Shown here: piece after piece, positions 1,835 through 38,863 of the stretch
How the letters are laid out: every line of letters begins with the position of its first letter
Position numbering within the stretch: position 1 is the stretch's first letter
Origin: a virus
DNA: 64,000 bases
IMG/VR virus record: IMGVR_UViG_3300032073_005220
Coordinates: 32,001 to 96,000 of that record
Direction: 5' to 3' (one strand)
Translations under genes and position numbers: made by a program
Notes under the pieces: generated by a model
Seen by the model: the letters and a program-made list of their open reading frames with translations, nothing else
What the model was told of the DNA's origin: nothing
The model's database searches: none

Positions 1835-1853
1835 TAATGAAAGGGGTATTGAG

Positions 1854-2636: not shown

Positions 2637-2637
2637 T

Positions 2638-3845: not shown

Positions 3846-4192
3846 GTGTCTATACTTTTCCCGCAGCTCTCTCTGATAATATCTTCCCCGTCTAATTCTA
3901 CAAAATACATTTCTAAAGCCAATGTATCTTCTAAAGCAGAAAACCTGTGTAGTAATCCTGGAGTTACACAAGTACTCTGTCCATCAGTTATTATAGTTTG
4001 ATCAACTAGGTCATAATCCTTCTGCCAAACTTCTATTTTAAGCTTTCCTTTTTCTACATAAAATACATTGTGCTTATGCAGGTGATAATGTTTTGAGCAC
4101 ATATAGCCTTTATTCACTTCTATACGATGCACAGCAACATTATTTTTATCAAACAGACATTCTGTATTACCCCAAATTTTTCCTTGTATCAT
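3842..4192 (-). CDS. Cupin (sugar isomerase-like)
   Basis: KIWG, CSKHYH..K...FYV..G, PG..HRF. Confidence 0.75.
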   Translation of the reverse strand: MIQGKIWGNTECLFDKNNVAVHRIEVNKGYMCSKHYHLHKHNVFYVEKGKLKIEVWQKDYDLVDQTIITDGQSTCVTPGLLHRFSALEDTLALEMYFVELDGEDIIRESCGKSIDT

Positions 4193-4205
4193 ATTGTCAA
4201 CCTTT

Positions 4206-4222
4206 AGTGTATACTAATTATA
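4206..4222 (+). promoter_or_regulatory. GTGTA-AT-rich motif variant (putative phage promoter)
   Basis: AGTGTATACTAATTATA upstream of the AAGGAG RBS and subtilisin gene. Confidence 0.4.
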
Positions 4223-4253
4223 ACTACATTATAATGACCAAAGGAGATAACTA

Positions 4254-5177
4254 ATGTTTTTTAGCCGCAAAGATTCTTTTCTTTTTCCTTATGTAAAAGA
4301 AGACATATATTCAAATTTCGCAAATCGTCAAGAAGTTCCTTGGTCAATAGGACAATATAATATACCCCGTTTATGGGGCAAATATACCGGAAGAAATGTA
4401 GTAGTTGCTGTCATTGATAGTGGTTGTCAGCTAGATCATCCAGATTTAAAGGAGAACTACATAGAAGGCTATAATACCATAAATAAGAATAAAGATCCTA
4501 TGGACGAAAATGGTCACGGTACTCATGTCGCTGGTACAATAGCAGCTATGAATAATCATCAGGGGGTTGTTGGAGTAGCGCCTGATACAAAAATTATGCC
4601 TATTAAAGTATTTGATAAAAGCGGCTCAGGATCAACAGCTAACGTGGCTAGTGCTGTAGAGTGGGCTGGTAAAAATGGAGCAGATATTATTTGTATGTCT
4701 TTAGGGTCAAAACATGGTAGTAGACATTTAGAAAAAGCAATTACGGGAGCATTAAACAGAGGCGCTGTGTGTTTCTGTGCTGCTGGTAATTCTGGAGAAA
4801 AAACTGACATACTTTATCCAGCCAAATTTGAGTTAACCGTTAGCACAGGAGCTATAGATATAAATCAAAATAGAACACTATTTAGTTGTAGTGGAGAAGA
4901 GTTAGACTTTTTAGCGCCCGGAGCAGATATATTAAGTACTATGATGAATGGTCGTTACGCTGTTATGAGTGGTACTAGCATGGCAAACCCATACGTGGTT
5001 GGGTGTGCGGCATTACTTTGTGAGTGGGCTAAGAAGCACAGAATTAAATTAACAACAGCCGATGATTATATTGGGCATCTCAAAAAGTATACTACGTCTT
5101 TAAAAAATGCAAAGTATAAAAATAATAAATCTTATGAGGGTAATGGAATATTAGACCCAAGAAAATTTAATTTTTAG
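4254..5177 (+). CDS. Subtilisin-family (S8) serine protease, intracellular (ISP) type
   Basis: VIDSG, GHGTHVAG, AAGN, GTSMA; no signal peptide; N-terminal LFPYV resembles the ISP LIPY motif. Confidence 0.92.
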   Translation: MFFSRKDSFLFPYVKEDIYSNFANRQEVPWSIGQYNIPRLWGKYTGRNVVVAVIDSGCQLDHPDLKENYIEGYNTINKNKDPMDENGHGTHVAGTIAAMNNHQGVVGVAPDTKIMPIKVFDKSGSGSTANVASAVEWAGKNGADIICMSLGSKHGSRHLEKAITGALNRGAVCFCAAGNSGEKTDILYPAKFELTVSTGAIDINQNRTLFSCSGEELDFLAPGADILSTMMNGRYAVMSGTSMANPYVVGCAALLCEWAKKHRIKLTTADDYIGHLKKYTTSLKNAKYKNNKSYEGNGILDPRKFNF

Positions 5178-14266: not shown

Positions 14267-14336
14267 AATAAATATGAGATGTGTTTGGATTTATATTAAT
14301 TCTGGAGATTATGATTGCTGGGAGCGCATTAAATGA
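14259..14336 (+). pseudogene. 25-codon mini-ORF, probable collapsed methyltransferase remnant
   Basis: MIKINMRCVWIYINSGDYDCWERIK*; overlaps both neighbours (ATGATTAA and ATGA). Confidence 0.45.
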
Positions 14337-14923
14337 TCGACAACTCTGTAAAAATATTTGAACAAAAAATTGCAGACTTTTATGGTTGTCCATATGCTAT
14401 AGCTGTTGATTGTTGTACTCATGGAATAGAATTGTGTTTGAGATATACAAACACTTTACATTACACTACCCCCAAAAGAACATATGTTTCTATTCCCATG
14501 CTTGCCAATAAATTAGGTATAGATTTTACTTGGGAAGAATTGGCTTGGGAAGACTATTACTTTTTAGGGAATACCAATATCATAGACGCCGCAGTAAATT
14601 GGAAAGCTAATAGTTATATATCTAATACATTTATGTGCTTAAGTTTTCAATTTCAAAAACATTTGAGCTTGGGTAGAGGAGGTATGATATTAACAGATAA
14701 TATAAAGGCTTGCACAGCTCTTAAAAAAATGTCGTACGACGGAAGACTACCCGACATTCCTTGGAGAGAACAAAATATTGACAGTATGGGATATCATTAC
14801 TACATGACACCAGAAACAGCTAAGCTAGGACTAGAAAAACTGCCTGAAGCCATAGAGAGAAAACCTAAAAAATGGACATTAGAGGAGTGGCCTGATTTAA
14901 CTCAAATGGAGATTTTCAAGTGA
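14333..14923 (+). CDS. Short DegT/DnrJ/EryC1/StrS PLP aminotransferase
   Basis: FEQKIA, AVDCCTHG, IIDAA, SFQFQKHL..GRGG (PLP lysine). Confidence 0.8.
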   Translation: MIDNSVKIFEQKIADFYGCPYAIAVDCCTHGIELCLRYTNTLHYTTPKRTYVSIPMLANKLGIDFTWEELAWEDYYFLGNTNIIDAAVNWKANSYISNTFMCLSFQFQKHLSLGRGGMILTDNIKACTALKKMSYDGRLPDIPWREQNIDSMGYHYYMTPETAKLGLEKLPEAIERKPKKWTLEEWPDLTQMEIFK

Positions 14924-15891
14924 AAAAAGCACTAATAACCGGCATCAATGGTCAAGACGGAAGCTATTTAACAGAATATCTTTTGTCTTTAGGCTATGAA
15001 GTTCATGGAATAGTAAGAAGACATTCTGTTGCAGAAAATCAAAATTATAGATTACTTAAACACGATATCGACAACAGTATCCATACACACTATGGAGATT
15101 TGACCGATTATTCGTCATTGGTAAGAATTACTTCCGAAGTCTCTCCTGATGAAATATATAATTTAGCAGCGATGAGCCATGTAAGGATTAGCTTTGATGT
15201 CCCTTCGTATACTATTCAGTCTAATGCTCTAGGCGTTTTAAATATGCTTGAAATTTATAAAACACTATGTCCAGCAGCTAAATTTTATCAAGCCTCATCA
15301 TCTGAAATGTTTGGTAATTCTGTAGACGATGATGGGATACAAAGACTTACAACCTCTATGAATCCTGTTAGTCCCTATGGGTGTTCTAAAGTGCTTGGGT
15401 ATAATTTAGTTAGACATTATAGACACGCTTATGGACTACATGCATGTAATGGTATTTTATTTAATCACGAATCTCCCAGAAGAGGCTCTAACTTTGTTAC
15501 CAACAAAGTAATAAAAACCGCAGTTGAAATTAAAAAAGGACTAGCAACGCAGCTAGAATTAGGGAATATGGATTCTTCTAGAGATTGGGGTCATTCCAAA
15601 GACTATGTTAGAGCTATGCATATGATATTAAATCACGATAAGCCTGATGATTTTATCGTATCTACAGGAGAAACTCATTCTGTGCGAGAATTATGCGATA
15701 TAGTTTTCTCTAAATTAGACATGAACTACAAGGATTTTGTGATACAAAACCCTAAATACATGAGACCAGAAGAATTAAAATATCTTAAAGGAGATCCCAC
15801 AAAAGCTAGAACTGTTTTAAAATGGGAACCAGAATATACTTTTGATAGCATGATAGATGAGATGATAGAAAGATGGGAGAAAGAACTATGA
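14920..15891 (+). CDS. gmd: GDP-mannose 4,6-dehydratase
   Basis: ALITGINGQDGSYL, SHVRISF, YQASSSEMFG, SPYGCSK, LFNHESPRRG. Confidence 0.96.
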   Translation: MKKALITGINGQDGSYLTEYLLSLGYEVHGIVRRHSVAENQNYRLLKHDIDNSIHTHYGDLTDYSSLVRITSEVSPDEIYNLAAMSHVRISFDVPSYTIQSNALGVLNMLEIYKTLCPAAKFYQASSSEMFGNSVDDDGIQRLTTSMNPVSPYGCSKVLGYNLVRHYRHAYGLHACNGILFNHESPRRGSNFVTNKVIKTAVEIKKGLATQLELGNMDSSRDWGHSKDYVRAMHMILNHDKPDDFIVSTGETHSVRELCDIVFSKLDMNYKDFVIQNPKYMRPEELKYLKGDPTKARTVLKWEPEYTFDSMIDEMIERWEKEL

Positions 15892-16730
15892 ATAAACGGC
15901 TTTGTATCTTACAAATAACGCCAGAAAAACCCAATCCAGTGCATATAAGTTATTTTAAAGACAAGCCTGATTGTGACTTTTTCTTTTTAACACACGATGC
16001 CGAGCATCCAGATGCTTTAAAATTTTGCCCAAACACAGTATGGTCGGAAACAAGAAATATAATTGTTGAATCGGTACCAAAAAAATATGATTATTATGGT
16101 TTTGTAGATTATGATTGGACTATTAATAGCAGGTCTAATTTAAGCCCACGCGACCAAATTTTAGAAGATTTAGACTGGAATCCAGCTGTGCTGACGTACT
16201 ATCCCGGTAAAGGTCTATCCACCCCATATGCAACTGATACCGAATACTTAAATAGTAGAGAAAGATCTTGCATACCTTTTACTCATGCTAGCTTTAAAAT
16301 GATACATCACAGTTTGTTAAACTGGTTTTTTCCTATGCATACAAAATATCGAGTAGATATAGACGGCTGCCATATGTTTAATATACAAGAAATTCCTTTT
16401 TTAAAAAATGTTATCTGTAGTCATAAAATGACTTATGACAACGATGTTTCTGTTGCAGGAGCATACAATAAGAACCCAGCCTTTGCCAAGCAGGGAATGG
16501 ACCAAATGTGGAAAGACATATCTACATCATATAAACACATGGATGCATTAAGGTCAGCTAATTACGACTTAAACGACTCTTTGAGTATTAAATATTTTTA
16601 TGTTAACCTTTTTAAGCAATTAAATATATCTCCGGAAAAAAGTCCAGGTGATGTGAATTATTTAGATGTTGCTAGAATATCTCAACATTTTGACATCGAG
16701 CATCCGTGGATCGCTTCTCACATAAGATAA
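15888..16730 (+). CDS. Hypothetical protein, possibly GT-A fold
   Basis: WSETRN and YYGFVDYD (DxD); ATGA-coupled start. Confidence 0.5.
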   Translation: MNKRLCILQITPEKPNPVHISYFKDKPDCDFFFLTHDAEHPDALKFCPNTVWSETRNIIVESVPKKYDYYGFVDYDWTINSRSNLSPRDQILEDLDWNPAVLTYYPGKGLSTPYATDTEYLNSRERSCIPFTHASFKMIHHSLLNWFFPMHTKYRVDIDGCHMFNIQEIPFLKNVICSHKMTYDNDVSVAGAYNKNPAFAKQGMDQMWKDISTSYKHMDALRSANYDLNDSLSIKYFYVNLFKQLNISPEKSPGDVNYLDVARISQHFDIEHPWIASHIR

Positions 16731-16746
16731 TAAGAATAGAAAGACT

Positions 16747-17766
16747 ATGAATACAAAACTAAAAAATAAAGATCAGGTAATTAATCTACTTAATAATATA
16801 GCTTTTAACGACTTAAAAACAAACTATAACCCTTGGCTTGCTATTACAGATAATATTAATCAACAAACAGGAAATAGTCTAACTACATCAGAATGTGTTG
16901 ATATATACCAAAAAAATAACAATACTTCTTTATTTATCAAAGCTTCTAACACTAACACAAAGCTTTTATCATATCTTGAAAATAAAACTGTTGCTTTAGT
17001 TGGACCGGCCCCCTATCTTATTGGGCAAAAAAAGGGAGCTATTATTGATCAATACGATATTGTTGTTAGGATTCAACACGGTATACCTAATGAAATTGAT
17101 TATGGCTCTAGGACAGATATAATTCAAAGTTGTTTAAATATAAATTATGGACCTCCATTAGTAAAATACTTACAAACATTATCTGAAGATAAAAAATCTA
17201 AATTTATTATCTGTAACGACACTGCTAGCGAACCAAAAGCTAATGGTCAGTGGGCCTTTGTCGATGAAGTTTATGAAAAACAATTTACAGAATTAGGCAT
17301 ACCCCTAGTTCATTTACACAACTCGGATGGAACTTGGGATAGGTGGGCTTTATACTGGGAGATGTATCCCAAAGCCCATACAGAAAGGTTTCCGAACGGT
17401 CGGACTCAATCTAATTCAGAAAATTTTAATTCTGGATATGGTGCAATAAATATGATATTAAGATATCCAGTAAAAGAACTTGCCGCATTCGGTTTAGACT
17501 TCTATAATACAGGAGTTCCGCAAGATGATAAAGGTAAGTACAACAGTCAATATACTGATACTTATGGAAAATCTGGAACACCATTCGGACCTTGTCACGG
17601 GTTACATGATCAGCTATCTCAAATGATGCATTGTAAGAATGTTTTAATGAGAGATCCTAGATTCGTATTGGATGAAGATGTTAAAAGTAAACTTATGTCC
17701 GAAAATGTTGCTAATAGAATTGCAAATTTTGTAAAATTACCTAAAAAACAAAACGAGACTAGATAA
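16747..17766 (+). CDS. GT29 (sialyltransferase)-like glycosyltransferase
   Basis: VALVGPA.....G..IDQYDIVVRI, DYGSRTDI, NSGYGAI, FGLDFY. Confidence 0.7.
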   Translation: MNTKLKNKDQVINLLNNIAFNDLKTNYNPWLAITDNINQQTGNSLTTSECVDIYQKNNNTSLFIKASNTNTKLLSYLENKTVALVGPAPYLIGQKKGAIIDQYDIVVRIQHGIPNEIDYGSRTDIIQSCLNINYGPPLVKYLQTLSEDKKSKFIICNDTASEPKANGQWAFVDEVYEKQFTELGIPLVHLHNSDGTWDRWALYWEMYPKAHTERFPNGRTQSNSENFNSGYGAINMILRYPVKELAAFGLDFYNTGVPQDDKGKYNSQYTDTYGKSGTPFGPCHGLHDQLSQMMHCKNVLMRDPRFVLDEDVKSKLMSENVANRIANFVKLPKKQNETR

Positions 17767-18191
17767 TGAATCTCAATTCCGATGCAGATTTAAATAATGT
17801 TTTAAAAAAAGATGGCGTGCCAGTGTCAGAGCTTGCTAAATATGAAAATATTGATACGATAAGCCTAGAGCAATTACGAGCAGATTTAGGTCTTGGGTCA
17901 TGGGCTGCTAGAATAGCTTATAACGATTTATTTGGAGGTGTTGTAATACAACAACAGCCGGGAGAAGGAAATAGAAAGCATTTTCATCCTGATGCCGACG
18001 AAAATTGGGTAATATTAGACGGAGAGTGGGAATGGTGGATAGAGGGTGTTGGTACTAAAGTGGTAAGGACTAACGACATTATAGTAGTACCTAAAAATAC
18101 ATGGCATCACATTAAATGCGTAGGAACTAAACCCGGTGTTAGATATGCTATTACAAGACCAGATGTAAATCATGTGTATGAAAATGAGTGA
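17766..18191 (+). CDS. Cupin domain protein
   Basis: PGEG..KHFHPDADE.W.ILDG, VP...WHHI. Confidence 0.8.
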   Translation: MNLNSDADLNNVLKKDGVPVSELAKYENIDTISLEQLRADLGLGSWAARIAYNDLFGGVVIQQQPGEGNRKHFHPDADENWVILDGEWEWWIEGVGTKVVRTNDIIVVPKNTWHHIKCVGTKPGVRYAITRPDVNHVYENE

Positions 18192-18897
18192 TATTAATTT
18201 TGATTTTAAAGATAAAATTGTATTAGTTTTTGGCGGAAGTAAAGGTATTGGCAAAGAAGTTTGTGAGCAATTTTTGCGACACAACGCAAAAGTATATTGC
18301 ATATCTAGAACTAATCCTTTTATCTCAAATGTAAACTTTATACAATGTGATATTTCCAAAGAGTCTGACATATCTAATGTGTTTAGTCGTTTCAATAAAG
18401 TTGATTTTGTGATTAATGTTGCTGGTACTAACTTATGTCAACCAATAGAGAATATAAGCATAGAAGAATGGGATAGACTTATGTCTATAAATTTAAGGTC
18501 TTTCTTTATCATTTGTAAGCAGTCTGTAAAACTAATGAAGCCTTTTAACTACGGTAGAATTGTTAATGTTTCTTCTATTGCGGGTAGAAATAAAAGTATT
18601 GTTAGCGGTGTCCATTATACTGCCAGTAAATATGGTGTTATCGGATTAACAAAACAGTTAGCTAACGAAGTTTCTCAATTTAATATATTAGTTAATTCTG
18701 TTTGTCCTAGTCAAACAATGACACAAATGCTAAAAGAATCAATGTCAAATAAACAAAGAGAAAAATTAGAACAATCAATACCAGTAAAAAAAATAGCTTC
18801 CACAAAAGAGCAGGCTATGCCTATATTGTTTTTATGTTCTAGTGCCGCTTCTTATATAGCTGGCACAACATTAGATGTTAATGGAGGACAGCTATAA
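18184..18897 (+). CDS. Short-chain dehydrogenase/reductase
   Basis: GGSKGIG, NVAG, NVSS, YTASK. Confidence 0.92.
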   Translation: MSDINFDFKDKIVLVFGGSKGIGKEVCEQFLRHNAKVYCISRTNPFISNVNFIQCDISKESDISNVFSRFNKVDFVINVAGTNLCQPIENISIEEWDRLMSINLRSFFIICKQSVKLMKPFNYGRIVNVSSIAGRNKSIVSGVHYTASKYGVIGLTKQLANEVSQFNILVNSVCPSQTMTQMLKESMSNKQREKLEQSIPVKKIASTKEQAMPILFLCSSAASYIAGTTLDVNGGQL

Positions 18898-19574
18898 TGT
18901 CTAGAAATATTGATATCAATGTATTAATTGCGGTAAGAGCTGGATCAAAAAGAGTGCCTAATAAAAATATTAGATCTTTCGGCAACACCAATATGTTATC
19001 TGCAAAAGTAAAGCAAACTTTATCTTTGAAAGATGTAAGAAAGGTTGTGGTTACTTCAGATAGTGAAGAGATGCTTGATATAGCTAGTGATTTAGGTGCA
19101 TATCCTATGAAAAGAGATCCCTACTATGCTAGTGATTCTGTTCCTATGGGCGATGTTTATGTTCATCTAGCATCTATCATGGATTGTAAAGATATATTAT
19201 GGACCCCTGTTACAAGTCCTTTGGTCTCTAAAGAAACTATAGAGTCATGTATTGACATATACAAAAACCAAGAACAATATGATTCCGTAGTTACTACGAA
19301 CATAATACAAGAATACATGTGGCTTGATGGTAAAGCAATTAATTATGATCCCAAGAATCATCCTCGGTCACAAGATTTGCCTAAAATTTATGCATTAAAT
19401 TTTGCTGTTAATATTTTATCTAGAGAAACCATGATTAAAAATAAGAATATTCTGGGAGATAACTTTTATTCATACATGATAGACGACATAGAGTCTGTAG
19501 ATGTGGATACAGAATTTGATTTCAAAATAGCAGAAATGCTATATAACAATAAGGCGACATATGAAAAATCTTAA
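18897..19574 (+). CDS. CMP-ulosonic acid synthetase (NeuA/PseF-like cytidylyltransferase)
   Basis: RAGSKRVPNKN, VTSDS, TSP, RSQDL, DVDTEFDF. Confidence 0.88.
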   Translation: MSRNIDINVLIAVRAGSKRVPNKNIRSFGNTNMLSAKVKQTLSLKDVRKVVVTSDSEEMLDIASDLGAYPMKRDPYYASDSVPMGDVYVHLASIMDCKDILWTPVTSPLVSKETIESCIDIYKNQEQYDSVVTTNIIQEYMWLDGKAINYDPKNHPRSQDLPKIYALNFAVNILSRETMIKNKNILGDNFYSYMIDDIESVDVDTEFDFKIAEMLYNNKATYEKS

Positions 19575-20493
19575 AGTATTTATAGTAACATATAAAAGAT
19601 CTGACGTTTTAAATAGAACTCTTAATACCTTATTTCATCAAACAGATTTTTTAACAATACCAAACACCCAAGTAAATATTATCAACAATCACTCTGATTT
19701 TTATTTAGATCCTGCATTCTCTAGTCAAGTAAACGTTATACATAATAATACCAGGCCTGATTGGGACACAGGGAATTTAGCTAGAAATTGGAATGAGTCT
19801 TTGCTTCATGGTTTTAAAGACTTAAAAAATCCTGATGCTAATATTGTTACAACAATGCAGAACGATATTGTGTTAAGTAAGCATTGGGCTAGCAATCTGA
19901 TGAAAATGCATGAAAAATATACATTTATAACTGGACATTTTGGAGATAACATTGTAAGCTACCAACCGGAAGCGGTAAAGAAAATAGGAATGTGGGATGA
20001 AAGATATTTAACTCCTGTTAATAAAGAAGCAGATTATTTTATTAGGGCATTAATTTATAATAAAAATAAATCATTAATTAACGATAAAGCTCATGGTAGA
20101 TTACTAAATGCAAAAGACGCCTTAGAATTGGACAGTAGTGCATATTTAGGAAACGAACCCGATTGGAGAAATGAATTTAAAGACAAAGAAAACACTAGAG
20201 AAGGATGGTATCATACTTCTCAAATATTTTACTGGAAATGGAAAGACACTTGGAAAACACAACCAAGTTACTACGGTTGGTTAACAAGATGGTCACAAGA
20301 TTTTATAAATAATCCCCCATCTCCACCAAAAGTACCAAACTTTGTGCAATATGCCTATTTTGAAAAAGATATTGAACTTAAAGATAAAAACTATGTTGGT
20401 TGGCGTAAAGGAGATTGCTGGCTAGATGCTAATAAATGTTGTGACATAGATATTCATCCCTTTAAAGCGGGGAAAAGATTTAGAGATGATTAA
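19561..20493 (+). CDS. GT2-like glycosyltransferase
   Basis: FIVTYKR, IINN, LARNWN, MQND, IGMWDERY..EADY. Confidence 0.65.
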   Translation: MKNLKVFIVTYKRSDVLNRTLNTLFHQTDFLTIPNTQVNIINNHSDFYLDPAFSSQVNVIHNNTRPDWDTGNLARNWNESLLHGFKDLKNPDANIVTTMQNDIVLSKHWASNLMKMHEKYTFITGHFGDNIVSYQPEAVKKIGMWDERYLTPVNKEADYFIRALIYNKNKSLINDKAHGRLLNAKDALELDSSAYLGNEPDWRNEFKDKENTREGWYHTSQIFYWKWKDTWKTQPSYYGWLTRWSQDFINNPPSPPKVPNFVQYAYFEKDIELKDKNYVGWRKGDCWLDANKCCDIDIHPFKAGKRFRDD

Positions 20494-21853
20494 GCTAATA
20501 ATTTTTGATTTAGACGGAGTATTAGTAGATGCAAGAGAGTTGCATTACGAAGCTTTAAATGCTGCATTAGAATATATTGATAAGAAATATGTTATAAATA
20601 GACAGGAGCATTTGTCTACTTACGACGGTCTTTCTACCACTAAAAAACTGCAGATGCTTACAAAAGAAAAGCATTTACCTCAAAATTTACATCACGAAAT
20701 ATGGAAGCTCAAACAAGAAAAAACATTAGATATTATCCGTGATTTTCAACCTGACCTAAGGATTATTGCCCTATTAAAGAATTTGAAACAACAAGGTATA
20801 ACGGTCGCATGCGCTACGAATTCTATTAGGGACACGGCAAAATTACAGTTAATAAAGAAAGGTTTTTTTGAGCATATTGATTTTATGTATTCTAATCAAG
20901 ATGTGAATAAGCCTAAGCCTAGTTCAGAAATATATCTCAGATGTATGCTAAAAGCAGATGTTGACCCACAAGAAACAGTAATTGTAGAAGACTCTCATCA
21001 CGGCAGAAAAGCAGCTATTAATAGCGGAGGACATTTGTGTGCTGTCAAAAATAGTACTGATGTCACACAAGATAAAATACAAAATTTTATAAATAAAATC
21101 AACAAACAAGCCACCATAAAACCCAAGTGGCAGGGAGGCAAGATGAATGTACTTATTCCTATGGCCGGTGCTGGATCAAGATTTGAACAAGCAGGTTATA
21201 CTTTCCCCAAACCTCTAATTGAGGTTAAAGGCAAACCAATGATACAGTTGGTAGTTGATAGTCTTAATATTGATGCTAGGCACATATTCGTGGTACAAGA
21301 ATCTCATTATGAAAAATATAACTTAAAACACTTGTTAAATCTAATATCTCCAAACTGTGAAGTTGTGTGCGTGAATGGAGTAACGGAAGGAGCAGCTTGC
21401 ACAACCTTGCTTGCTAAAAAGTTTATAGACAATAATGAACCTCTTGTGTTCGCTAATTCAGATCAGTTTTTAGATTGGGATAGTAATGAATTTATGTATT
21501 CTATGGAAGCCGACGAAATTGATGGAGGCATGCTGACCTTTACAGCCACTCATCCCAAATGGAGTTTTGCTAAATTAAATGACGACGGTTTTGTTACTGA
21601 AGTAGCAGAGAAAAAACCGATCAGTGATATTGCAACAGTCGGAGTTTATTATTGGAAACGTGGAGCTGATTATGTAAAATATGCCGAACAAATGATCAGA
21701 GAAAATATTAGAGTGAATAACGAGTTTTATGTATGTCCTGTGTTTAATGAGGCTATTAAAGATGGTAAGAAAATCAAAACTTTCCATTTTGATGGTATGT
21801 GGGGCATAGGTACTCCTGAAGATTTAGATATATTCAATAAAGAATATAAGTGA
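20486..21853 (+). CDS. HAD phosphatase fused to a BcbE-like nucleotidyltransferase
   Basis: FDLDGVL, ATNS, KP, VEDS; then IPMAGAGSRF, PKPLI, NSDQ, EKKPIS, GTPEDL. Confidence 0.88.
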   Translation: MIKLIIFDLDGVLVDARELHYEALNAALEYIDKKYVINRQEHLSTYDGLSTTKKLQMLTKEKHLPQNLHHEIWKLKQEKTLDIIRDFQPDLRIIALLKNLKQQGITVACATNSIRDTAKLQLIKKGFFEHIDFMYSNQDVNKPKPSSEIYLRCMLKADVDPQETVIVEDSHHGRKAAINSGGHLCAVKNSTDVTQDKIQNFINKINKQATIKPKWQGGKMNVLIPMAGAGSRFEQAGYTFPKPLIEVKGKPMIQLVVDSLNIDARHIFVVQESHYEKYNLKHLLNLISPNCEVVCVNGVTEGAACTTLLAKKFIDNNEPLVFANSDQFLDWDSNEFMYSMEADEIDGGMLTFTATHPKWSFAKLNDDGFVTEVAEKKPISDIATVGVYYWKRGADYVKYAEQMIRENIRVNNEFYVCPVFNEAIKDGKKIKTFHFDGMWGIGTPEDLDIFNKEYK

Positions 21854-22650
21854 AAATCATTAAAAAAAAAATAGCTATATTACTAACTGGATTTGTAAGA
21901 AATTGGAAAGATACAATAAATAATCTTATTGTAAATTTTGTAAGTAAAAATGACGAGAGATTTGAATTCGATTTATATGGAGTAACTTATAATATAACAG
22001 ATGACTATACTCAGGACACTAGCTATAAAAGACATGTAGATTTACAAGAAATTAATTCCTTAACAGAAGAATATGCATTTAAAGACTTAGAAGTATTAAA
22101 TTATAGAAAAACATTAAATAAAATACTTTGGGACAATCAACAAATAATATCTCTAATTGAGGATTATATAGATGTGGAATACAAGATAGAAACAATTTTA
22201 ATGCAATGCTTTTGCATACAGCTTGCTTATAATAAAATACAACACAAGAAATATGATTTTGTCATGAGAAGTAGGTTTGATGTTAATCATATACAAAGTA
22301 CAATTATTCAAGAAGAAGGAATCGCAAATAATGAAATTGGATGTCTGTCAAGACCTAGCAGCCAAAATTTTGTAGACCATGTTGTTTTTGGTACTCAACA
22401 AAATTTGAGAATATTTTGTAATACTTATTCTAATCTACAAACAGAAAACTTTATTACTAATTATAAAATTAAATTTGTAGAAGACGCTTTTTTAAATACC
22501 TTATTGATGAATAAAATTAAAATTAAGATTTTGCCATGGATTTGTAGTGTTCAAAGGCGCACTCCATGCATCATCTGTGAAAGAGAAGGAACTAAAGACG
22601 AATTGTTTTTATTTGACATACGTAAGTTCAACTTAGATGAAACGAGTTAA
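21850..22650 (+). CDS. Hypothetical glycosyltransferase-like protein
   Basis: IAILLTGFVR, YDFVMRSRFD pattern common in glyco clusters. Confidence 0.5.
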   Translation: MKIIKKKIAILLTGFVRNWKDTINNLIVNFVSKNDERFEFDLYGVTYNITDDYTQDTSYKRHVDLQEINSLTEEYAFKDLEVLNYRKTLNKILWDNQQIISLIEDYIDVEYKIETILMQCFCIQLAYNKIQHKKYDFVMRSRFDVNHIQSTIIQEEGIANNEIGCLSRPSSQNFVDHVVFGTQQNLRIFCNTYSNLQTENFITNYKIKFVEDAFLNTLLMNKIKIKILPWICSVQRRTPCIICEREGTKDELFLFDIRKFNLDETS

Positions 22651-23350
22651 TCCAATGAAATTAAAAGATTTAGAAATTATAGACGCAAATCAACATTTAT
22701 TTGATAGCTTTAATGACTTTATACTGAGTAGTGATACGAAGGTCTTTGGCAAACTACTTGCTAGATGCTTATTGTTGAATCAGGTTAAAGACATTCCTGG
22801 AGATATTGTAGAGTGTGGAGTATTTAAAGGAACGGGTCTTATGACATTTCTAAAAGCTAAAAGATTCTTATGTCCTAACGGACATAAAAAAGTTATCGGC
22901 TTTGATTTCTTTAATTCAGATGGGCTACTAAAAAGTCTCGACGGAATAGACAAAAAAGCTATGTCTACTTTATTTAAAGGTAGAAATTATGAGCACAAAA
23001 ATAAACACGAAGAAATATTATATCAATATATTTTAAATTGTGGTTTTGCAGAACATGAGTTTGAGCTGGTGTCTGGTGATATAACTAAGACATCGCATGA
23101 ATACATTAAAGATAAACCTGGATTCAGAATATCTTTATTGTATATTGATCTAGATTTAGATGTGCCAAGTTATGAAACACTAAATGCTCTCTGGGACAGA
23201 GTATCTAGAGGAGGTGTTGTCGTCTTCGATGAATATGCTTTTCATAAATGGTCTGAAGCTGACGGGGTCGACAGATTCTTTAAGGATAAAAACATTACAA
23301 TTAAAACCCTAGACTATATATGTCCAACAGCATATGTAATAAAATCATGA
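22637..23350 (+). CDS. TylF/MycF-family O-methyltransferase
   Basis: PGDIVECGVFKG, GFDFF, YIDLD, GGVVVFDEY. Confidence 0.85.
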   Translation: MKRVNPMKLKDLEIIDANQHLFDSFNDFILSSDTKVFGKLLARCLLLNQVKDIPGDIVECGVFKGTGLMTFLKAKRFLCPNGHKKVIGFDFFNSDGLLKSLDGIDKKAMSTLFKGRNYEHKNKHEEILYQYILNCGFAEHEFELVSGDITKTSHEYIKDKPGFRISLLYIDLDLDVPSYETLNALWDRVSRGGVVVFDEYAFHKWSEADGVDRFFKDKNITIKTLDYICPTAYVIKS

Positions 23351-23817
23351 ATAAAATATTAATATCTCATAGGGGAAATATATTTGGCTCAAAACCCGAA
23401 CAAGAAAATAAGCCCGAATATATTCTTAAAGCGATATCAAACGGTTTTGATGTAGAAATAGATATATGGAATTCTAAGGATAAATTATTTCTAGGACATG
23501 ATAATCCTGAGACTAATATAAATAAAGATTTTTTATTACAAAACAGACAATATCTTTGGTGTCACGCTAAAAATCTTACAGCTTTAGAAAAATTACTGGA
23601 CATGGGTATGACTTGCTTTTGGCATCAAGAAGATTATTATACCTTAACTAGCAATAACTATATATGGACCTATCCAGATCAATCAGTTGGAAGTAACTCT
23701 ATATGGGTAATGCCAGAAATGGCTGGTATTAATGAAACACAAACAGATTTATATCTATCAAATTGCATCGGAATATGTTCTGATTTTATAGGAGAGTATA
23801 TATGGACAAAACAATAG
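23347..23817 (+). CDS. Glycerophosphodiester phosphodiesterase-like protein
   Basis: ISHRGN, EN, DVEIDI, LGHD, WCHAKN, GICSD. Confidence 0.8.
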   Translation: MNKILISHRGNIFGSKPEQENKPEYILKAISNGFDVEIDIWNSKDKLFLGHDNPETNINKDFLLQNRQYLWCHAKNLTALEKLLDMGMTCFWHQEDYYTLTSNNYIWTYPDQSVGSNSIWVMPEMAGINETQTDLYLSNCIGICSDFIGEYIWTKQ

Positions 23818-24506
23818 TAGTAATGGGTAATGGTCCGTCATTGAAAGATTTAGATTGGGATCTACTCAAAGGCGTCGACACCTTTGGCTTAAATTCAGCT
23901 TATAGGGCTTATGAAAAAATGAACTGGTACCCTACATATCATGGTTGTTTTGACTATATAGTTACCGATTGTCACAGGCAAAACTTCACTCACCTAATCA
24001 ATACGGGTAGAATTAAAAATCATTTTTATATTCGTAATATATCTAATGCTTCTAACTTTACTCACATTAATCTACAACCTTGGAAAACCACACACAAGAT
24101 CAATAAATCTCCTGATGATTTCTCTTCTTTTCGGGATAATGGTAATAGTGGCACAAATGCGTGTTCTGTTAGTATGTGTTTAGGTTATAAAAATATAATA
24201 CTTGTCGGGGTGGATTGTAATTATGTTGAGCATGTAGACGGGTCTACTGGTGACGGACAGGGAGGTTTAAAGATGTTCAAAACTCCTGAAACAAATCCCA
24301 ATTATTGGTTTGATGATTACCAACAGGAAGGAGACAGATATAATGTCCCTAGAGGCGAGGTATTTCACAAACCTGCTTGGAACGACTTCTCTCAACTTGC
24401 TAAAGATAACGGCATTAATGTAGTCAATTCCAGCCCGATATCAACCTTAGAGTGTTTCAATAAGGTCTCGCTAGAACAGGCTGTTGCACAATATGTAAAA
24501 ACTTAA
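23802..24506 (+). CDS. DUF115/Maf (GT42-like) ulosonic-acid transferase-like protein
   Basis: VVMGNGPSL, FGLN, LGYKNIILVGVD. Confidence 0.65.
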   Translation: MDKTIVVMGNGPSLKDLDWDLLKGVDTFGLNSAYRAYEKMNWYPTYHGCFDYIVTDCHRQNFTHLINTGRIKNHFYIRNISNASNFTHINLQPWKTTHKINKSPDDFSSFRDNGNSGTNACSVSMCLGYKNIILVGVDCNYVEHVDGSTGDGQGGLKMFKTPETNPNYWFDDYQQEGDRYNVPRGEVFHKPAWNDFSQLAKDNGINVVNSSPISTLECFNKVSLEQAVAQYVKT

Positions 24507-24519
24507 TAAAATTCTTGCA

Positions 24520-24547
24520 TAGACATATAGAAAAAACCATCTATAAT
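24520..24547 (+). promoter_or_regulatory. Sigma70-type promoter TAGACA-16-TATAAT
   Basis: In the gap upstream of the aldolase; GAGG RBS follows. Confidence 0.55.
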
Positions 24548-24584
24548 AAACTAGATATCTAAACCAGAAAAAGAGGACTTTAAA

Positions 24585-25313
24585 ATGATATTATCTTGGC
24601 AGCAAATACCTTCTGTTACTGTTTCTGAAATTATGTGTAAAGGTTTTGATGGAGTTGTTCTTGATACTGAACACGGTAGTTTTAATACGGAAACTATTAA
24701 TAATTGCATACAGGTAATTAAATTAGCAGGCAAGAAAGCTTTCGTCAGATTAACAGAAGTTTCACCCACCAATATCAGATCGTGTCTTGATTCTGGCTGT
24801 GATGGTCTTATTTTTTCAACAGTAGAGACTGTTGACCAATGCGAAGCCATTAAAAACTGTTGCTACTTCCCTCCAAAAGGCAAGAGAGGTCTTGGACTAT
24901 CAAGAGAAAATATGTGGGGAGAAAAAAATCAATTAGTAAGTAGTGGACCAATTATTGTTCCTCAGATAGAATCTAAATTAGGTATTGAAAATATAGAAAA
25001 AATTAAAAGCTATGGATTTGACTTTCATCTTATTGGTCCGTATGATTTATCTTTAAGTTTAGAAATACCTGGCGACTTTAAACACGAAAAATTTCAAGAA
25101 GCTATTAAGACTATGAGAGATAGTATTCCTAATGATAAAATGGCCATACATATCCCTAAGGATCTTGACGCTTGGAATTTATGGCAGTCCGAAATGGAAG
25201 AATGGCTGAACTATTCAGATTATGGAATGCTATGCATAGGTATGGATACTATAGCTATCTTCCAGTATAATAAAGTAAATTTATCTAAAGTCAAAAAGAA
25301 CGCTGGTCGATAG
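24585..25313 (+). CDS. HpcH/HpaI class II pyruvate aldolase
   Basis: VLDTEHG, FVR, LDSG, PPKGKRG, QIES, IGPYDLS. Confidence 0.9.
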   Translation: MILSWQQIPSVTVSEIMCKGFDGVVLDTEHGSFNTETINNCIQVIKLAGKKAFVRLTEVSPTNIRSCLDSGCDGLIFSTVETVDQCEAIKNCCYFPPKGKRGLGLSRENMWGEKNQLVSSGPIIVPQIESKLGIENIEKIKSYGFDFHLIGPYDLSLSLEIPGDFKHEKFQEAIKTMRDSIPNDKMAIHIPKDLDAWNLWQSEMEEWLNYSDYGMLCIGMDTIAIFQYNKVNLSKVKKNAGR

Positions 25314-25332: not shown

Positions 25333-25361
25333 TTGACTTTGCAGCATCCTTGCTGTATAAT
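25333..25361 (+). promoter_or_regulatory. Near-consensus sigma70 promoter TTGACT-17-TATAAT
   Basis: Read directly from the sequence. Confidence 0.8.
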
Positions 25362-25380: not shown

Positions 25381-25506
25381 ATGTTAGAAATTTGTATTAT
25401 TATTGCTATGTTTGCTGGGCTTCTCGACGGCATCAAGAAGTTAAAATCTCCTCCAAAGATAAAGTCTTCCAATAATCTTATAGAGTATTTATTTATAGAC
25501 TACTAA
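25381..25506 (+). CDS. 41-aa small membrane protein (not in ORF track)
   Basis: MLEICIIIAMFAGLLDGIKKLKSPPKIKSSNNLIEYLFIDY*; AGGG RBS, TAATG coupling to next gene. Confidence 0.6.
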   Translation: MLEICIIIAMFAGLLDGIKKLKSPPKIKSSNNLIEYLFIDY

Positions 25507-26036
25507 TGAATAGACTAAAAAATCAAAGAGTTTACTTGGCTGGCGCAATAGATCGCGTTTACGATAAAGGTAGAGGCTGGAGAGAAGAAATATCTCCATT
25601 CTTAGAGTCTTTAGGAGTTGTAGTATTTAATCCTATTACAAAACCAACAGAAATAGGTTTAGAGGATAGCGATACCCATTTAGTAAAATCTAAACTGAAA
25701 AAGAATAAAAGATATGACGAACTCAGCTCTATGATGAAAATTATTAGATCTGTAGATCTTAGATTGGTAGATATAAGTGATTTGTTGATTGTAAACTTAG
25801 ATTTAGATATTCACCCTTGCGGCACTTATGAAGAAATTTTCTGGGCAAATAGGCAGAAGAAACCGATTATAATACACATGGTACAGGGTAAAGAACATGC
25901 TCCTGATTGGCTTTTTGGTACAGTGCCTCATCAAATGATATATTCTGATTGGAACGATATTTATGGATATCTAGAACACATAAACTCTTCTGAAAACATT
26001 AACACCTACAATAGATGGTATTTTTTTAATATATAA
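25506..26036 (+). CDS. Nucleoside 2-deoxyribosyltransferase / nucleotide N-hydrolase-like
   Basis: VYLAGAID, WR, FNP, DL..V..SD, GTYEE. Confidence 0.8.
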   Translation: MNRLKNQRVYLAGAIDRVYDKGRGWREEISPFLESLGVVVFNPITKPTEIGLEDSDTHLVKSKLKKNKRYDELSSMMKIIRSVDLRLVDISDLLIVNLDLDIHPCGTYEEIFWANRQKKPIIIHMVQGKEHAPDWLFGTVPHQMIYSDWNDIYGYLEHINSSENINTYNRWYFFNI

Positions 26037-26039
26037 ATT

Positions 26040-26621
26040 ATGAAACATGTAACTAATCAAGAAGTATATAATTATATTTATAGATACCCAACAGATGAGT
26101 TATCTCTAAATGCTTTTAGAAATATTGATAAGAAAAACTTTAGTACAGAGAATAATGAGGAATGGGAAGAATGTAAACAGTTTATAGATAAACATTTACC
26201 ATATGCTCTCTGTCCACAACCATATGTTAGACATCCTTTGTATGCTTTATCTCCAGCGTCTGTAGCAGGAAGGAGACAGTATTGTGTCCTTGATTTTAAA
26301 ACTGAAAACGACAAAATTATTTTACTTGGAGATACAATATATCACGGCAGCGATATGTCTAAACAGCTTATAGACTATATTATTAGTCCAGAAGGAGAAT
26401 TAATTCTTGGCAGAAAACATTTTTGGCTAACTGTGGAAGCAGGACTTACATTCGTACATGGCGCTGGTCGAGTAATCATAGCGCAGAATGGTGAAATTTC
26501 CTATATAGATAACCACTCTGGCCATTTCCAGCCCGATATATCTAAATTTAGGAAAAGTTTAAAAACTTTATCACATCTAAAGATAAGAGAAATTAACGAG
26601 TGGAATTATGAAAATCCTTGA
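26040..26621 (+). CDS. Protein with a polymorphic-toxin-like (Ntox43-like) domain
   Basis: YII..EG.LILG..H..L.....V.GAG.V...G.I..IDNHSGHFQP. Confidence 0.5.
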   Translation: MKHVTNQEVYNYIYRYPTDELSLNAFRNIDKKNFSTENNEEWEECKQFIDKHLPYALCPQPYVRHPLYALSPASVAGRRQYCVLDFKTENDKIILLGDTIYHGSDMSKQLIDYIISPEGELILGRKHFWLTVEAGLTFVHGAGRVIIAQNGEISYIDNHSGHFQPDISKFRKSLKTLSHLKIREINEWNYENP

Positions 26622-27717
26622 AGATAAAAAACTAGACTTTGACGATGTTTTAATCAGACCCAAAAGATCTACACTTAAAAGCAGGTCTGAAGTTTTGTTA
26701 AACAGAAAAATGAGATTCCCTCACTCTAATAGAGAATTAGATTGTGTTCCGGTCATTGCTGCTAACATGGACACTACCGGATCATTTTCTATGAACGATA
26801 CCCTTTCACAGTTTGATTGCATAACCTGCCTGCATAAACACTACACGGTTGAACAATTGCTTAGATATTTTAGGAATAAAAAACCATACGCTTTTTATTC
26901 TACAGGAATCTCTGAAACAGACATAGATAAACTTACATGCGTATATGATAAATTACAAGTTAAGCCGAACCTATGTATTGATGTGGCCAATGGCTACAGT
27001 GAAAGATTTGTTACTACAATAAAACGAATTAGAGATTGGTATCCCGATATTATTATTATGGCAGGAAATGTTGTTACTCCAGAAATAACAGAAGAGTTAA
27101 TATTTCATGGTGGTGTTGATATAGTAAAAGTAGGAATAGGATCAGGAAGTGTTTGTACTACCAGACTTAAAACTGGAGTAGGCTACCCTCAACTATCTGC
27201 CATAATGGAATGTGGAGATGCTGCTCATGGATTAAATGGACATATTTGTAGTGATGGAGGATGCAAAACTCCTGCCGACGTATGCAAAGCATTTGGAGCC
27301 AATGCAGATTTTGTAATGTTGGGAGGCATGTTGGCAGGTACCGACTGTTGTGAAGGAGAATGGAAATATGAATATAGATGCCATACAGCAGGCGAAGACG
27401 ACAGACGTAATCAAGAGTGGTGGCAACCTTATGATCCCGGCTATCTAACAGATAAAAGGAAAGTGTCTCTGTCTTTTTATGGCATGAGCAGTAAGGAGGC
27501 TATGATTAAACACAATGGAGGCGTGGCCGATTATAGAACGAGCGAAGGCAAATGTGTTGCAATACCATACAAAGGAACAACTAAAGATTGCATTCAAGAT
27601 GTTCTTGGAGGTATTAGAAGTGCTTGCACTTATGTTGGAGCAAATAAGCTGAAAGATTTCAGCAAAAAAACAACTTTTATCAAAGTCAACAATACTCACA
27701 ATAAGGTTTTTTCATGA
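26608..27717 (+). CDS. guaC: GMP reductase
   Basis: LDFDDVLIRPKRSTL.SRSEV, AANMD, DVANGYSE, KVGIGSGSVCTTR, FYGMSS, RSACTYVGA. Confidence 0.95.
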   Translation: MKILEDKKLDFDDVLIRPKRSTLKSRSEVLLNRKMRFPHSNRELDCVPVIAANMDTTGSFSMNDTLSQFDCITCLHKHYTVEQLLRYFRNKKPYAFYSTGISETDIDKLTCVYDKLQVKPNLCIDVANGYSERFVTTIKRIRDWYPDIIIMAGNVVTPEITEELIFHGGVDIVKVGIGSGSVCTTRLKTGVGYPQLSAIMECGDAAHGLNGHICSDGGCKTPADVCKAFGANADFVMLGGMLAGTDCCEGEWKYEYRCHTAGEDDRRNQEWWQPYDPGYLTDKRKVSLSFYGMSSKEAMIKHNGGVADYRTSEGKCVAIPYKGTTKDCIQDVLGGIRSACTYVGANKLKDFSKKTTFIKVNNTHNKVFS

Positions 27718-30501: not shown

Positions 30502-31092
30502 ATGGATAAACAATTTGACTCTTTGGACACTTATATACAACTAGCGAAGAAAACCATTTCTAAGTTTGCTCCCAAATTTTATAATGGACTAGCTGCTGAA
30601 ATGCTTTCTAATGAAGATGCTATTTCTGATATAGCTACGGCTATTATGTCTGCTGATTGGAAATTTGATTCAAATAGAGTAGGTCCAACAGGTTTGAAAA
30701 AAACTCAATACTCGTATAGAAATCAGTGCGTTATATGGGCTATGAAAACTTATGTTACCCATAAGTATAAACAAAAAACTCATTCAAGTTTAGATTATGA
30801 CATAGGAGATAAAGACACCTTGTCTAAAACTATTCCAGACCATAAAAGTTCCGACCCTTTCGATATTATTATGGAAAAAGAAGAAAAACAAAATCTTAAA
30901 CAAAACCTAGAAGATATATTAGAATCTGATATCTTAAATGATAAACAAAGAAATCAAATCAAAATGTATTACTACGAAGGCAATACTTTGTCTCAAATAG
31001 GGAAAAAGTTTGGAGTCTCCAGAGAAGCGGTACGTCAAAACATTAAACGTGGGCTACAAAATATTAGAAAACTAGAAAAATGCTATTGTTAA
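30502..31092 (+). CDS. Phage RNA polymerase sigma factor (sigma70 family)
   Basis: Region 4 HTH TLSQIGKKFGVSREAVRQ; region-2-like KFD...YSY. Confidence 0.8.
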   Translation: MDKQFDSLDTYIQLAKKTISKFAPKFYNGLAAEMLSNEDAISDIATAIMSADWKFDSNRVGPTGLKKTQYSYRNQCVIWAMKTYVTHKYKQKTHSSLDYDIGDKDTLSKTIPDHKSSDPFDIIMEKEEKQNLKQNLEDILESDILNDKQRNQIKMYYYEGNTLSQIGKKFGVSREAVRQNIKRGLQNIRKLEKCYC

Positions 31093-37783: not shown

Positions 37784-38863
37784 ATGTCAGATATACAAAA
37801 AATAGACACTAGTAAGTCTATAGATCATGGTGGACTTACCGTTAGGCATCCATTCGGTGAAGGAGAAGGTCGTGACGCTAAGATATCTAGTCAGGACATC
37901 AAGACTCAAGCAGATAATTTATTAAATAAGTTTAAACCATTAAGAAGGTTTGAAGCAAAGACATTCTCATCCTTGTACTCTATGATGAATGATGGAACTC
38001 TAGGAATATATCAGTCTGACCTACCCTATCCTGGATTATCTAATTTTACATTAAAAACAACAATTGATCTAGGCATTCCTGCATTCTCTCTTAATGCCCA
38101 ACATTATATCTTTAATTATGGAAACTATCAGTACGTTATGTGTCCTGATAGTAATATTAAATATTTAGATTCAGCTTTTAATATAGCTGAAATTGATATT
38201 AATAATAGATTTGACTCTATTTTTGTCAAAGATACCAATACCATATTTTCTGTAATAGATAGAACTGTTTATGAAATTGACTTATCAAATAACACCAGTT
38301 CTGTATATGGAACTCTAGATAGTTCTATAATATATCCAATGTCTTATATTTTATATGACTCGATAAACAATAAATTTGTTGTAATAGATGGAGAAGAAAC
38401 CTCTGACAATATATATGTATTAGATAGTTCTCTAAATATCATTTTTACTATAAATATGACGTCAAGTTATACCGGGAAAATACCTACATGTATATTTGAT
38501 AATAAAAACGGTACTATTTTAATTATTTTACAAAATACAAATTTAGAATCAGAATTGTTAAACCTACAATTAGACTTATCTGATAATAGCATCTCAGAAA
38601 TAAATGCATCAAATATAATTTATAAAAAATATTACTTAGATATATTTAATAAGTATAGTGTGCAAAACGATGGTACGAATTCTGTTATATATGATAACTC
38701 CAACACTTTAGTTTCTTTTCCTGTTAATAAATATCAACATATTCTAAATATCAATCCAGTTACTGATACAATAATTGTGAAGCAGTATGACGGCAAAAAA
38801 TGTGTTTATGCATTAAGCACTATTACCTCTTCTAAACCTCAAAAAATATTAGAATTAGATTAA
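37784..38863 (+). CDS. Beta-rich (propeller-like) putative virion protein
   Basis: Repeating short beta-strand patterns (VYEIDLS, YDSINN, IYVLD, INPVTD). Confidence 0.5.
   Translation: MSDIQKIDTSKSIDHGGLTVRHPFGEGEGRDAKISSQDIKTQADNLLNKFKPLRRFEAKTFSSLYSMMNDGTLGIYQSDLPYPGLSNFTLKTTIDLGIPAFSLNAQHYIFNYGNYQYVMCPDSNIKYLDSAFNIAEIDINNRFDSIFVKDTNTIFSVIDRTVYEIDLSNNTSSVYGTLDSSIIYPMSYILYDSINNKFVVIDGEETSDNIYVLDSSLNIIFTINMTSSYTGKIPTCIFDNKNGTILIILQNTNLESELLNLQLDLSDNSISEINASNIIYKKYYLDIFNKYSVQNDGTNSVIYDNSNTLVSFPVNKYQHILNINPVTDTIIVKQYDGKKCVYALSTITSSKPQKILELD

Follow-up and report, generated by a model that had tools for sequence, protein, structure and literature searches.

The glycan island and the gene run of the aldolase

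The window analysed here is a stretch of 64,000 nucleotides (bases 32001–96000) of the 157,014-bp record of an uncultured marine phage (IMG/VR record IMGVR_UViG_3300032073_005220; CheckV completeness, 100%). An island of glycan enzymes extends from ~230 to 30,000 of the window (roughly 30 kb), with a G+C content of ~33%, the same as that of the remaining window. Within the island lies a run of open reading frames (ORFs), all on the + strand and mostly overlapping, which contains a gene for a CTP_transf_3 cytidylyltransferase and ends with a gene for an HpcH/HpaI-family pyruvate aldolase. These two enzymes, and the activated sugar acid that they may jointly provide, are the subject of this analysis. 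The run consists of the following genes (window coordinates, strand, and profile scores).

16747–17766, +, GT29-like glycosyltransferase with a sialyl-motif L region (PF00777, 22.1 bits against a cut-off of 23; BLASTP E = 2.5e-5 to the GT29 gene at 848)
17766–18191, +, Cupin_2 protein (PF07883, 48.4 bits)
18172–18897, +, classical short-chain dehydrogenase/reductase, SDR (adh_short, 149–151 bits)
18897–19574, +, NeuA/PseF-like CMP-ulosonate cytidylyltransferase of the CTP_transf_3 family, "type B" (PF02348, 58.7 bits)
19561–20493, +, GT2-like protein (PF00535, 23.1 bits, borderline against a cut-off of 23.3)
20486–21853, +, HAD domain (beta-PGM-like) fused to a sugar-1-phosphate nucleotidyltransferase (HAD_2, 102.6 bits; NTP_transferase, 45.4 bits)
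21850–22650, +, phage-common glycosyltransferase-like protein without a Pfam match (feature and structure neighbours are viral glycosyltransferase or capsule-synthesis-like clusters, a lead only)
22637–23350, +, TylF-type O-methyltransferase (PF05711, 42.7 bits)
23320–23817, +, shortened glycerophosphodiester-phosphodiesterase (GDPD)-like protein of about 150–165 residues, conserved directly upstream of HpcH in the class-B cassettes
23802–24506, +, DUF115/Maf- and GT42 (CstII)-like transferase (MptE-like PF01973, 32.3 bits against a cut-off of 34.6; CST-I, 22 bits)
24585–25313, +, HpcH/HpaI class II pyruvate aldolase (PF03328, 66.2 bits against a cut-off of 25)

An earlier note on this DNA had read the run in much the same way, and its cupin, SDR, NeuA-like, HAD-nucleotidyltransferase, TylF, and HpcH assignments are confirmed by Pfam, PDB, and fold searches, the GT29-like gene at 16747 and the GT2-like gene being borderline and the DUF115-like gene being under its Pfam cut-off but similar to CstII structures.

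The aldolase has 21 relatives in the PDB, with the best match to YfaU (PDB ID: 2vws; E = 1.4e-18), and also aligns to GarL and HpaI. Enzymes of this family use a catalytic Arg/His pair and Glu/Asp metal ligands (R70, H45, E149, and D175 in HpaI; R74, H49, E153, and D179 in YfaU). Residues H30, R55, E129, and D154 of the phage protein align to the active-site residues of YfaU and are invariant in 18 relatives. The AlphaFold model (pLDDT, 80) has HpcH/HpaI-family proteins for all of its top 35 Foldseek matches (TM-score, 0.68–0.77, the top ones being ~0.75), to which the sequence identity is 21–27%, and the C-terminus of the phage protein is shorter. Judged from the alignments and the model, the aldolase is intact and looks active. 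A PEP (phosphoenolpyruvate) mutase of phosphonate metabolism was also considered and rejected on the basis of the HpcH_HpaI match, the aldolase catalytic residues, and the fold matches, all of which are aldolases.

The cytidylyltransferase exceeds the CTP_transf_3 cut-off of 22.6 bits more than twofold and keeps the N-terminal R/K loop and the VTSP, QDLP, and DxDTE motifs. Its best PDB matches are synthetases of CMP-N-acetylneuraminic acid (CMP-Neu5Ac; 6ifd, E = 1e-14). The best NCBIfam model is PseF, with 91.5 bits against a cut-off of 205.7, and the KdsB models give at most 34 bits against cut-offs of 155–281. As its scores fall well short of the equivalog cut-offs of PseF and KdsB, the specificity of the enzyme does not appear to be a known one. 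The DUF115-like protein at 23802–24506 aligns over residues 3–139 with PDB structures of the GT42 sialyltransferase CstII (E = 1.5e-5), with the GNGPSL motif aligned, and is a candidate transferase for a CMP-linked sugar acid.

Absence of a PEP-dependent synthase and linkage of the aldolase to the activator

NeuA, KdsB, PseF, and LegF are all members of the CTP_transf_3 family, and, to our knowledge, every known substrate of the family is a free 2-keto-3-deoxy acid. The textbook routes to 3-deoxy-d-manno-octulosonate (Kdo) and to sialic, pseudaminic (Pse), and legionaminic (Leg) acids that we know of all begin with a PEP-dependent synthase of the KdsA/NeuB families, and genome surveys predict the display of such sugars from KdsA/NeuB genes. 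Neither NeuB (PF03102) nor KdsA (PF00793) found a match in the window or in the complete 157,014-bp genome, in searches whose positive controls responded. An aldolase of the DHDPS/NanA type likewise gave no match in the complete genome, and none of the enzymes that modify UDP-GlcNAc in the Pse or Leg routes was recognised in the phage. The genome contains exactly one CTP_transf_3 gene and exactly one HpcH gene. The earlier note's statement that the window lacks NeuB and KdsA is thus borne out, and its proviso, that one of them elsewhere in the genome might supply the substrate, found no such gene in the remaining sequence.

Related viruses carry the aldolase at the fixed right edge of a cassette of variable content (loci compared here are given as L numbers). 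In L001–L003, the genes flanking the cassette are 72–99% identical to those of the window and the aldolase is 95–97% identical, and a different, smaller cassette lies between the flanks. Its cytidylyltransferase (type A), which abuts the aldolase gene, is only 27–32% identical to that of the window. The cassette content differs again in L004 and L007, each of which has a CTP_transf_3 gene. Among distant Tara phages of ~190 kb, one form of the cassette is minimal, consisting of DUF115-like, CTP_transf_3, and HpcH genes, and another form carries the cupin, SDR, and cytidylyltransferase block of the window.

This block of the cupin, the SDR, and the type-B cytidylyltransferase is conserved, recurring in the distant phages L012 and L022 and also in L005 and L006. 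The cupin has no specific PDB match, and the SDR has only generic FabG and sugar-dehydrogenase matches in the PDB and NCBIfam; we propose that the former is an isomerase or tailoring enzyme, and the latter a tailoring oxidoreductase. The earlier note had tentatively assigned to the two proteins the production of the aldehyde for the aldolase. As a general rule, this assignment was rejected, because the class-A cassettes of the sister phages, with their 95–97% identical aldolase, have neither gene, and because the PDB and NCBIfam comparisons give no specific function. Since a near-identical aldolase serves both class-A and class-B cassettes, we read the cupin and SDR as tailoring enzymes for the divergent type-B activator, and it is more likely that they tailor the sugar than that they make the aldehyde. 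As to the source of the aldehyde, neighbouring genes offer leads only: the HAD domain and the cupin in the window, a GmhA-like SIS domain with a HAD-like half in relatives, and an extended SDR in SAR11.

The linkage of the aldolase to an activator was examined in 49 IMG/VR records with the aldolase, in which CTP_transf_3 was found in 39, NeuB in four, and KdsA in two. Every record with NeuB or KdsA has two or three CTP_transf_3 copies, and both synthases are absent from 35 of the 39 related records holding CTP_transf_3. Among the complete genomes with the aldolase (n = 6), an activator is present in five and NeuB or KdsA in none. A tree was built from 95 distinct HpcH sequences, 67 of which form one viral clade (SH-aLRT, 100), and a CTP_transf_3 gene lies on the same strand within 7 kb of HpcH in 60 of the 64 loci of this clade that have enough flank, abutting it in 22 of these. 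The catabolic-type cellular HpcH genes included in the comparison have no CTP_transf_3 gene nearby. A GT29-like or DUF115/GT42-like gene accompanies 52–54 of 56 loci with both HpcH and CTP_transf_3. The linkage of HpcH and CTP_transf_3 is near-universal across cassettes that are otherwise shuffled. In L039, the gene order is CTP_transf_3, a true KdsA, CTP_transf_3, DUF115, and HpcH, followed farther along by a NeuB-like gene and a PseF-like CTP_transf_3 gene, giving three synthases and three activators. A reverse search of 20 further records with this cytidylyltransferase family found HpcH in 10, including both complete genomes, NeuB in two, and neither in eight, which are fragments.

Evidence beyond phage synteny and rival roles of the aldolase

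In Pelagibacteraceae (SAR11), an extended SDR, HpcH, and CTP_transf_3 form a recurrent trio amid variable neighbours (L150:9127–11517, L161, L162, and L163), located in glycan islands of genomes with four to seven CTP_transf_3 genes each. HpcH lies upstream in the trio, the reverse of the phage order, and the activator is a bona fide KdsB by the NCBIfam cut-offs. An HpcH-family match was obtained in 159 of 301 Pelagibacteraceae genomes (one, G297, being unpublished data). The trio hints that the host of the phage may be SAR11-like.

A natural fusion of the two enzymes, P0121, is encoded by a single ORF of 483 residues with CTP_transf_3 at the N-terminus and HpcH at the C-terminus, and occurs in two assemblies as short metagenome contigs (L169:1170–2621 and L170:1170–2621). 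Identity to the type-A cytidylyltransferase of L001 is 36% over the N-terminal half, and identity to the aldolase of the window is 39% over the C-terminal half. The fusion, which joins exactly these two subfamilies, is the strongest single argument that the aldolase and the activator would act on the same metabolite. It also bears on a catabolic role, in which the aldolase would cleave a 2-keto-3-deoxy acid of the host, such as Kdo or 2-keto-3-deoxygluconate (KDG), to pyruvate and an aldose for phage metabolism or for the branch of the cassette leading to nucleoside diphosphate (NDP)-linked sugars. The reaction is reversible, and the characterised members YfaU, GarL, and HpaI are catabolic; such a role, however, leaves unexplained both the fusion with, and the constant nearness to, an activating enzyme, and the fact that no other synthase accompanies the only cytidylyltransferase, and we regard it as very improbable.

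In 33 distinct related loci, the stop codon of HpcH is overlapped by a gene for a 325-residue SIS-HAD protein (for example, L022:10674–11651, L011:4077–5057, and L149:10677–11654). An SIS isomerase domain resembling GmhA makes up the N-terminal part of this protein (PDB profile E = 1e-6; Foldseek TM-score normalised by target, 0.70–0.75). The C-terminal half is recognised by HAD phosphatase motifs only, the PDB profile and Foldseek matches covering the SIS half alone. If the HAD reading holds, the relatives with this gene would hold an isomerase, a synthase, a phosphatase, and an activator, which are the four functions of the Kdo pathway with the synthase alone replaced. In L114–L118, the SIS-HAD gene is found directly upstream of the cytidylyltransferase gene, and HpcH is absent.

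Based on the absence of NeuB and KdsA from the complete genome, the linkage in viruses, the matched numbers of synthases and activators, the reversed pair of SAR11, and the P0121 fusion, it is probable, albeit with considerable room for doubt, that the HpcH aldolase replaces NeuB/KdsA in a module for making, activating, and transferring a 2-keto-3-deoxy (ulosonic) sugar acid. The same lines of evidence support the inference to this effect in the earlier note.

Several observations weigh against this replacement. Most of the linked loci are from related phages, and the counts do not represent independent events. In the sub-clade L061–L066, which has no cytidylyltransferase, HpcH has a thiamine pyrophosphate (TPP) enzyme, an aminotransferase, and a dehydratase as neighbours; a separate T4-like HpcH clade (L072–L079) also lacks the activator. 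Conversely, L113–L118 carry this cytidylyltransferase family with neither HpcH nor NeuB within reach, which indicates that phages can encode an activator but no synthase. The SIS-HAD gene is not in the genome of the window phage. Furthermore, the conservation of HpcH greatly exceeds that of the cassette genes, its position at the edge is fixed, and in the window it has a promoter-like site of its own; it could be a backbone gene that is near the activator by position. The two best sigma-70-like matches of the 11–30.5 kb region (24520–24547 and 25333–25361) fall in its only two intergenic gaps, which flank the aldolase gene; over the region as a whole, sigma-70-like matches are no more numerous than expected by chance.

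One rival reading is supply from the host, which could provide Kdo or a nonulosonic acid through its own KdsA or NeuB, with the aldolase being an unrelated auxiliary metabolic or backbone gene at the cassette boundary. The conservation and fixed position of HpcH, the flanking promoter-like matches, and the activators of L113–L118 speak for this reading, and SAR11-type candidate hosts hold several CTP_transf_3, NeuB, and KdsA genes. Against host supply, members of both enzyme subfamilies are fused in P0121, the pair persists despite the different gene orders in phages and SAR11, the numbers of synthases and activators match in multi-copy loci, and overlap between the stop codon of HpcH and the SIS-HAD gene is seen in the 33 relatives. 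The phage activators, moreover, score far below the cut-offs of the KdsB, PseF, and NeuA models, and a standard host sugar is not suggested. Taken together, host supply appears unlikely.

The aldolase might also act on other substrates, extending a nucleotide-linked keto or aldehydo sugar by a pyruvate-derived unit into a branched or higher-carbon sugar, or providing a 2-oxo-acid substituent, in which case its linkage to CTP_transf_3 would reflect a shared glycan. In the 295-kb record of a jumbo phage, L063:5944–13901 encodes, in this order, a DegT aminotransferase, a 4,6-dehydratase, a 598-residue YerE-like TPP enzyme, HpcH, a second, weakly HpcH-like protein, a 4Fe-4S/LdpA (ferredoxin)-like protein, a HAD-like protein, and an epimerase, with no cytidylyltransferase; this order looks like a branched-chain sugar route. 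A GDP-mannose 4,6-dehydratase is present within the cassettes of the window and L012, and the HpcH fold also hosts the citrate synthase SbnG and macrophomate synthase. In the minimal cassettes (L009/L010 and L001–L003), however, HpcH and the activator are accompanied by transferases, and a dehydratase or any other enzyme that modifies NDP-sugars is missing. The known CTP_transf_3 substrates are all free 2-keto-3-deoxy acids, and P0121 joins the aldolase to an activator, not to an NDP-sugar enzyme. A substrate of this other kind is accordingly judged quite unlikely.

Proposed route, known pathways, and the remaining island

In the replacement of NeuB/KdsA by the aldolase proposed here, the aldolase would join an aldose to pyruvate (or to a near relative of it, for example, hydroxypyruvate) in a condensation that yields a 2-keto-3-deoxy acid, and in this phage the cupin and SDR would tailor the aldose or the product. 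The NeuA/PseF-like cytidylyltransferase would then turn the acid into its CMP ester, and the loss of pyrophosphate at this activation would pull the reversible aldol reaction forward. The GT29-like and DUF115/GT42-like transferases would attach the sugar to an acceptor. Kdo aldolase activity with pyruvate and d-arabinose has been known since 1966, as cited in PMC12199768, and makes the proposed chemistry plausible. Maf/DUF115 enzymes reportedly use CMP donors to place Neu5Ac and Kdo on Ser/Thr of proteins (bioRxiv 10.1101/2020.06.03.131540). In a membrane scan of the 38 island proteins, the single hydrophobic stretch was the N-terminus of a trypsin-like protease, and nothing resembled Wzx, Wzy, or a ligase. 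Because the island has no such membrane-assembly proteins, modification of the acceptor, a protein or a glycan, probably takes place in the cytoplasm, perhaps on virion fibre proteins, the Ig-like fibre proteins at 38863–45877 being candidates.

The proposed route resembles the CMP-Kdo pathway (KdsD, KdsA, KdsC, and KdsB) in that a 2-keto-3-deoxy acid is made and then activated with CTP by a CTP_transf_3 enzyme. In the relatives, an SIS isomerase domain with a HAD-like half adjoins the synthase gene, and the SAR11 partner is a true KdsB. Unlike that pathway, the phage has no KdsA, and the C–C bond would be formed by a non-homologous class II aldolase with pyruvate in place of PEP; the activators of the phages resemble NeuA/PseF rather than KdsB, and the window phage is without SIS-HAD. 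Phages with both KdsA and KdsB are known, for example, cyanophage S-SCSM2R (PMC12801897). With the nonulosonic pathways (synthases NeuB/PseI/LegI; activators NeuA/PseF/LegF; transferases GT29/GT42/GT52/GT80 or Maf), the cassette shares a NeuA/PseF-like activator and candidate transferases of the GT29-like and DUF115/GT42-like kinds, but it has no NeuB-family synthase, and its activator is far under the PseF equivalog cut-off. The catabolic enzymes HpaI, YfaU/RhmA, and GarL, and Kdo aldolase (EC 4.1.2.23), have the same fold, catalytic residues, and reaction type (pyruvate plus an aldehyde in equilibrium with a 4-hydroxy-2-oxo acid). In contrast to these, the phage gene stands in a glycan cassette rather than among genes of aromatic or sugar-acid catabolism, and we propose that the reaction runs towards synthesis, with CMP activation as the driving force.

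In the literature, no study was found that connects HpcH aldolases with CMP-sugar acids. What is most likely new, as far as the genes can tell, is a non-homologous first enzyme in the known logic of synthase, activator, and transferase, linked to viral cassettes and paired with NeuA/PseF-like activators. If this is true, surveys miss producers of such sugars, including abundant ocean phages and SAR11-like bacteria, and a shorter, PEP-free pathway would be at hand for the enzymatic synthesis of CMP-sugar acids. Phage "sialylation" by a constant aldolase with a swappable tailoring and transfer cassette would likewise be a mechanism that diversifies virion or host surfaces at sea. The P0121 fusion and the three-gene minimal cassettes offer simple constructs for a direct test. 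A bolder picture, possible but held with more doubt than confidence, is that a marine phage lineage and SAR11-type bacteria make a new ulosonic acid, distinct from Kdo and from Neu, Pse, and Leg, by a pyruvate aldolase from a free aldose, which in many relatives would come from the SIS-HAD protein; Maf/GT29-like enzymes would "sialylate" virion fibres, and the swappable cassette would set a serotype-like surface chemistry.

As for the other genes of the run, the GT2-like protein is 65% identical to the product of the same-position gene in L012, and is conserved beside the type-B cytidylyltransferase. The HAD-nucleotidyltransferase fusion, whose NCBIfam matches to the bPGM family and RmlA-like models are under the cut-offs, is read as a second, NDP-sugar branch of the cassette, and its HAD half could double as a sugar phosphatase. 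In L012:8352–9536 (also in L013 and L022), a 394-residue protein resembling the RuBisCO large subunit is encoded directly after the NTP_transferase gene of a glycan cassette, standing where the window instead has its nucleotidyltransferase-fused HAD domain. The GDPD-like protein at 23320–23817 displays HRG, EN, E.D, and HD motifs in an alignment of 24 homologues, with a profile match to the GDPD structure 7e0v (E = 2e-4). Upstream of the run, the island includes the following genes.

848–1510, +, GT29-family transferase (PF00777, 48.7 bits), 15 kb upstream in the same glycan island
14333–14923, +, short DegT-like protein (PF01041, 50 bits, partial profile)
14920–15891, +, GDP-mannose 4,6-dehydratase (PF16363, 388 bits)
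15873–16730, +, second DUF115-like protein without a Pfam match (E = 4e-48 against a hidden Markov model built from the DUF115-like genes of the phage group)

The DegT-like protein and the dehydratase (14333–15891) are read from their profile matches as a 6-deoxy-sugar branch at the left end of the cassette. Two more GT29-like genes had been listed in the earlier note; that at 848–1510 is a clear family member, but the ORF at 2638–3252 on the − strand has no Pfam match and no BLAST similarity to the GT29-like genes at 848 and 16747. The island further contains two GT25 genes, two HtrL/YibB-like genes, a PF11397 GlcNAc-transferase, methyltransferases, a 2-oxoglutarate-dependent (2OG) oxygenase, a GT1 gene, and a PAP2 protein gene. 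No near-identical DNA was found among GenBank phages, the aldolase is not found in any cultured phage and has no PHROG family, and the helicase of the phage is only ~25% identical to those of cultured relatives.

Several neighbouring genes were also recognised. Among the glycosyltransferase genes at 1514–5177 are those for an HNH endonuclease (1514), the above trypsin-like protease, whose N-terminus is hydrophobic (1854), and a subtilase (4254). After the cassette, 25506–27717 and 30502–31092 encode a nucleoside 2-deoxyribosyltransferase-like protein (weak match), an IMPDH/GMP-reductase-like protein, and a sigma-70 region 4 protein. Outside the window, ~24 kb ahead of its start (G000:C1:7119–7955), an open frame of 624 residues with two SIS domains is probably a phage GlmS-like glucosamine-6-phosphate synthase. 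In another virus, L116:6727–15290 combines GT11, GT6, GT29-like, and GT10 transferases with a sulfotransferase, a sugar C-methyltransferase, and a cytidylyltransferase, a toolkit like that for the synthesis of histo-blood-group/Lewis glycans.

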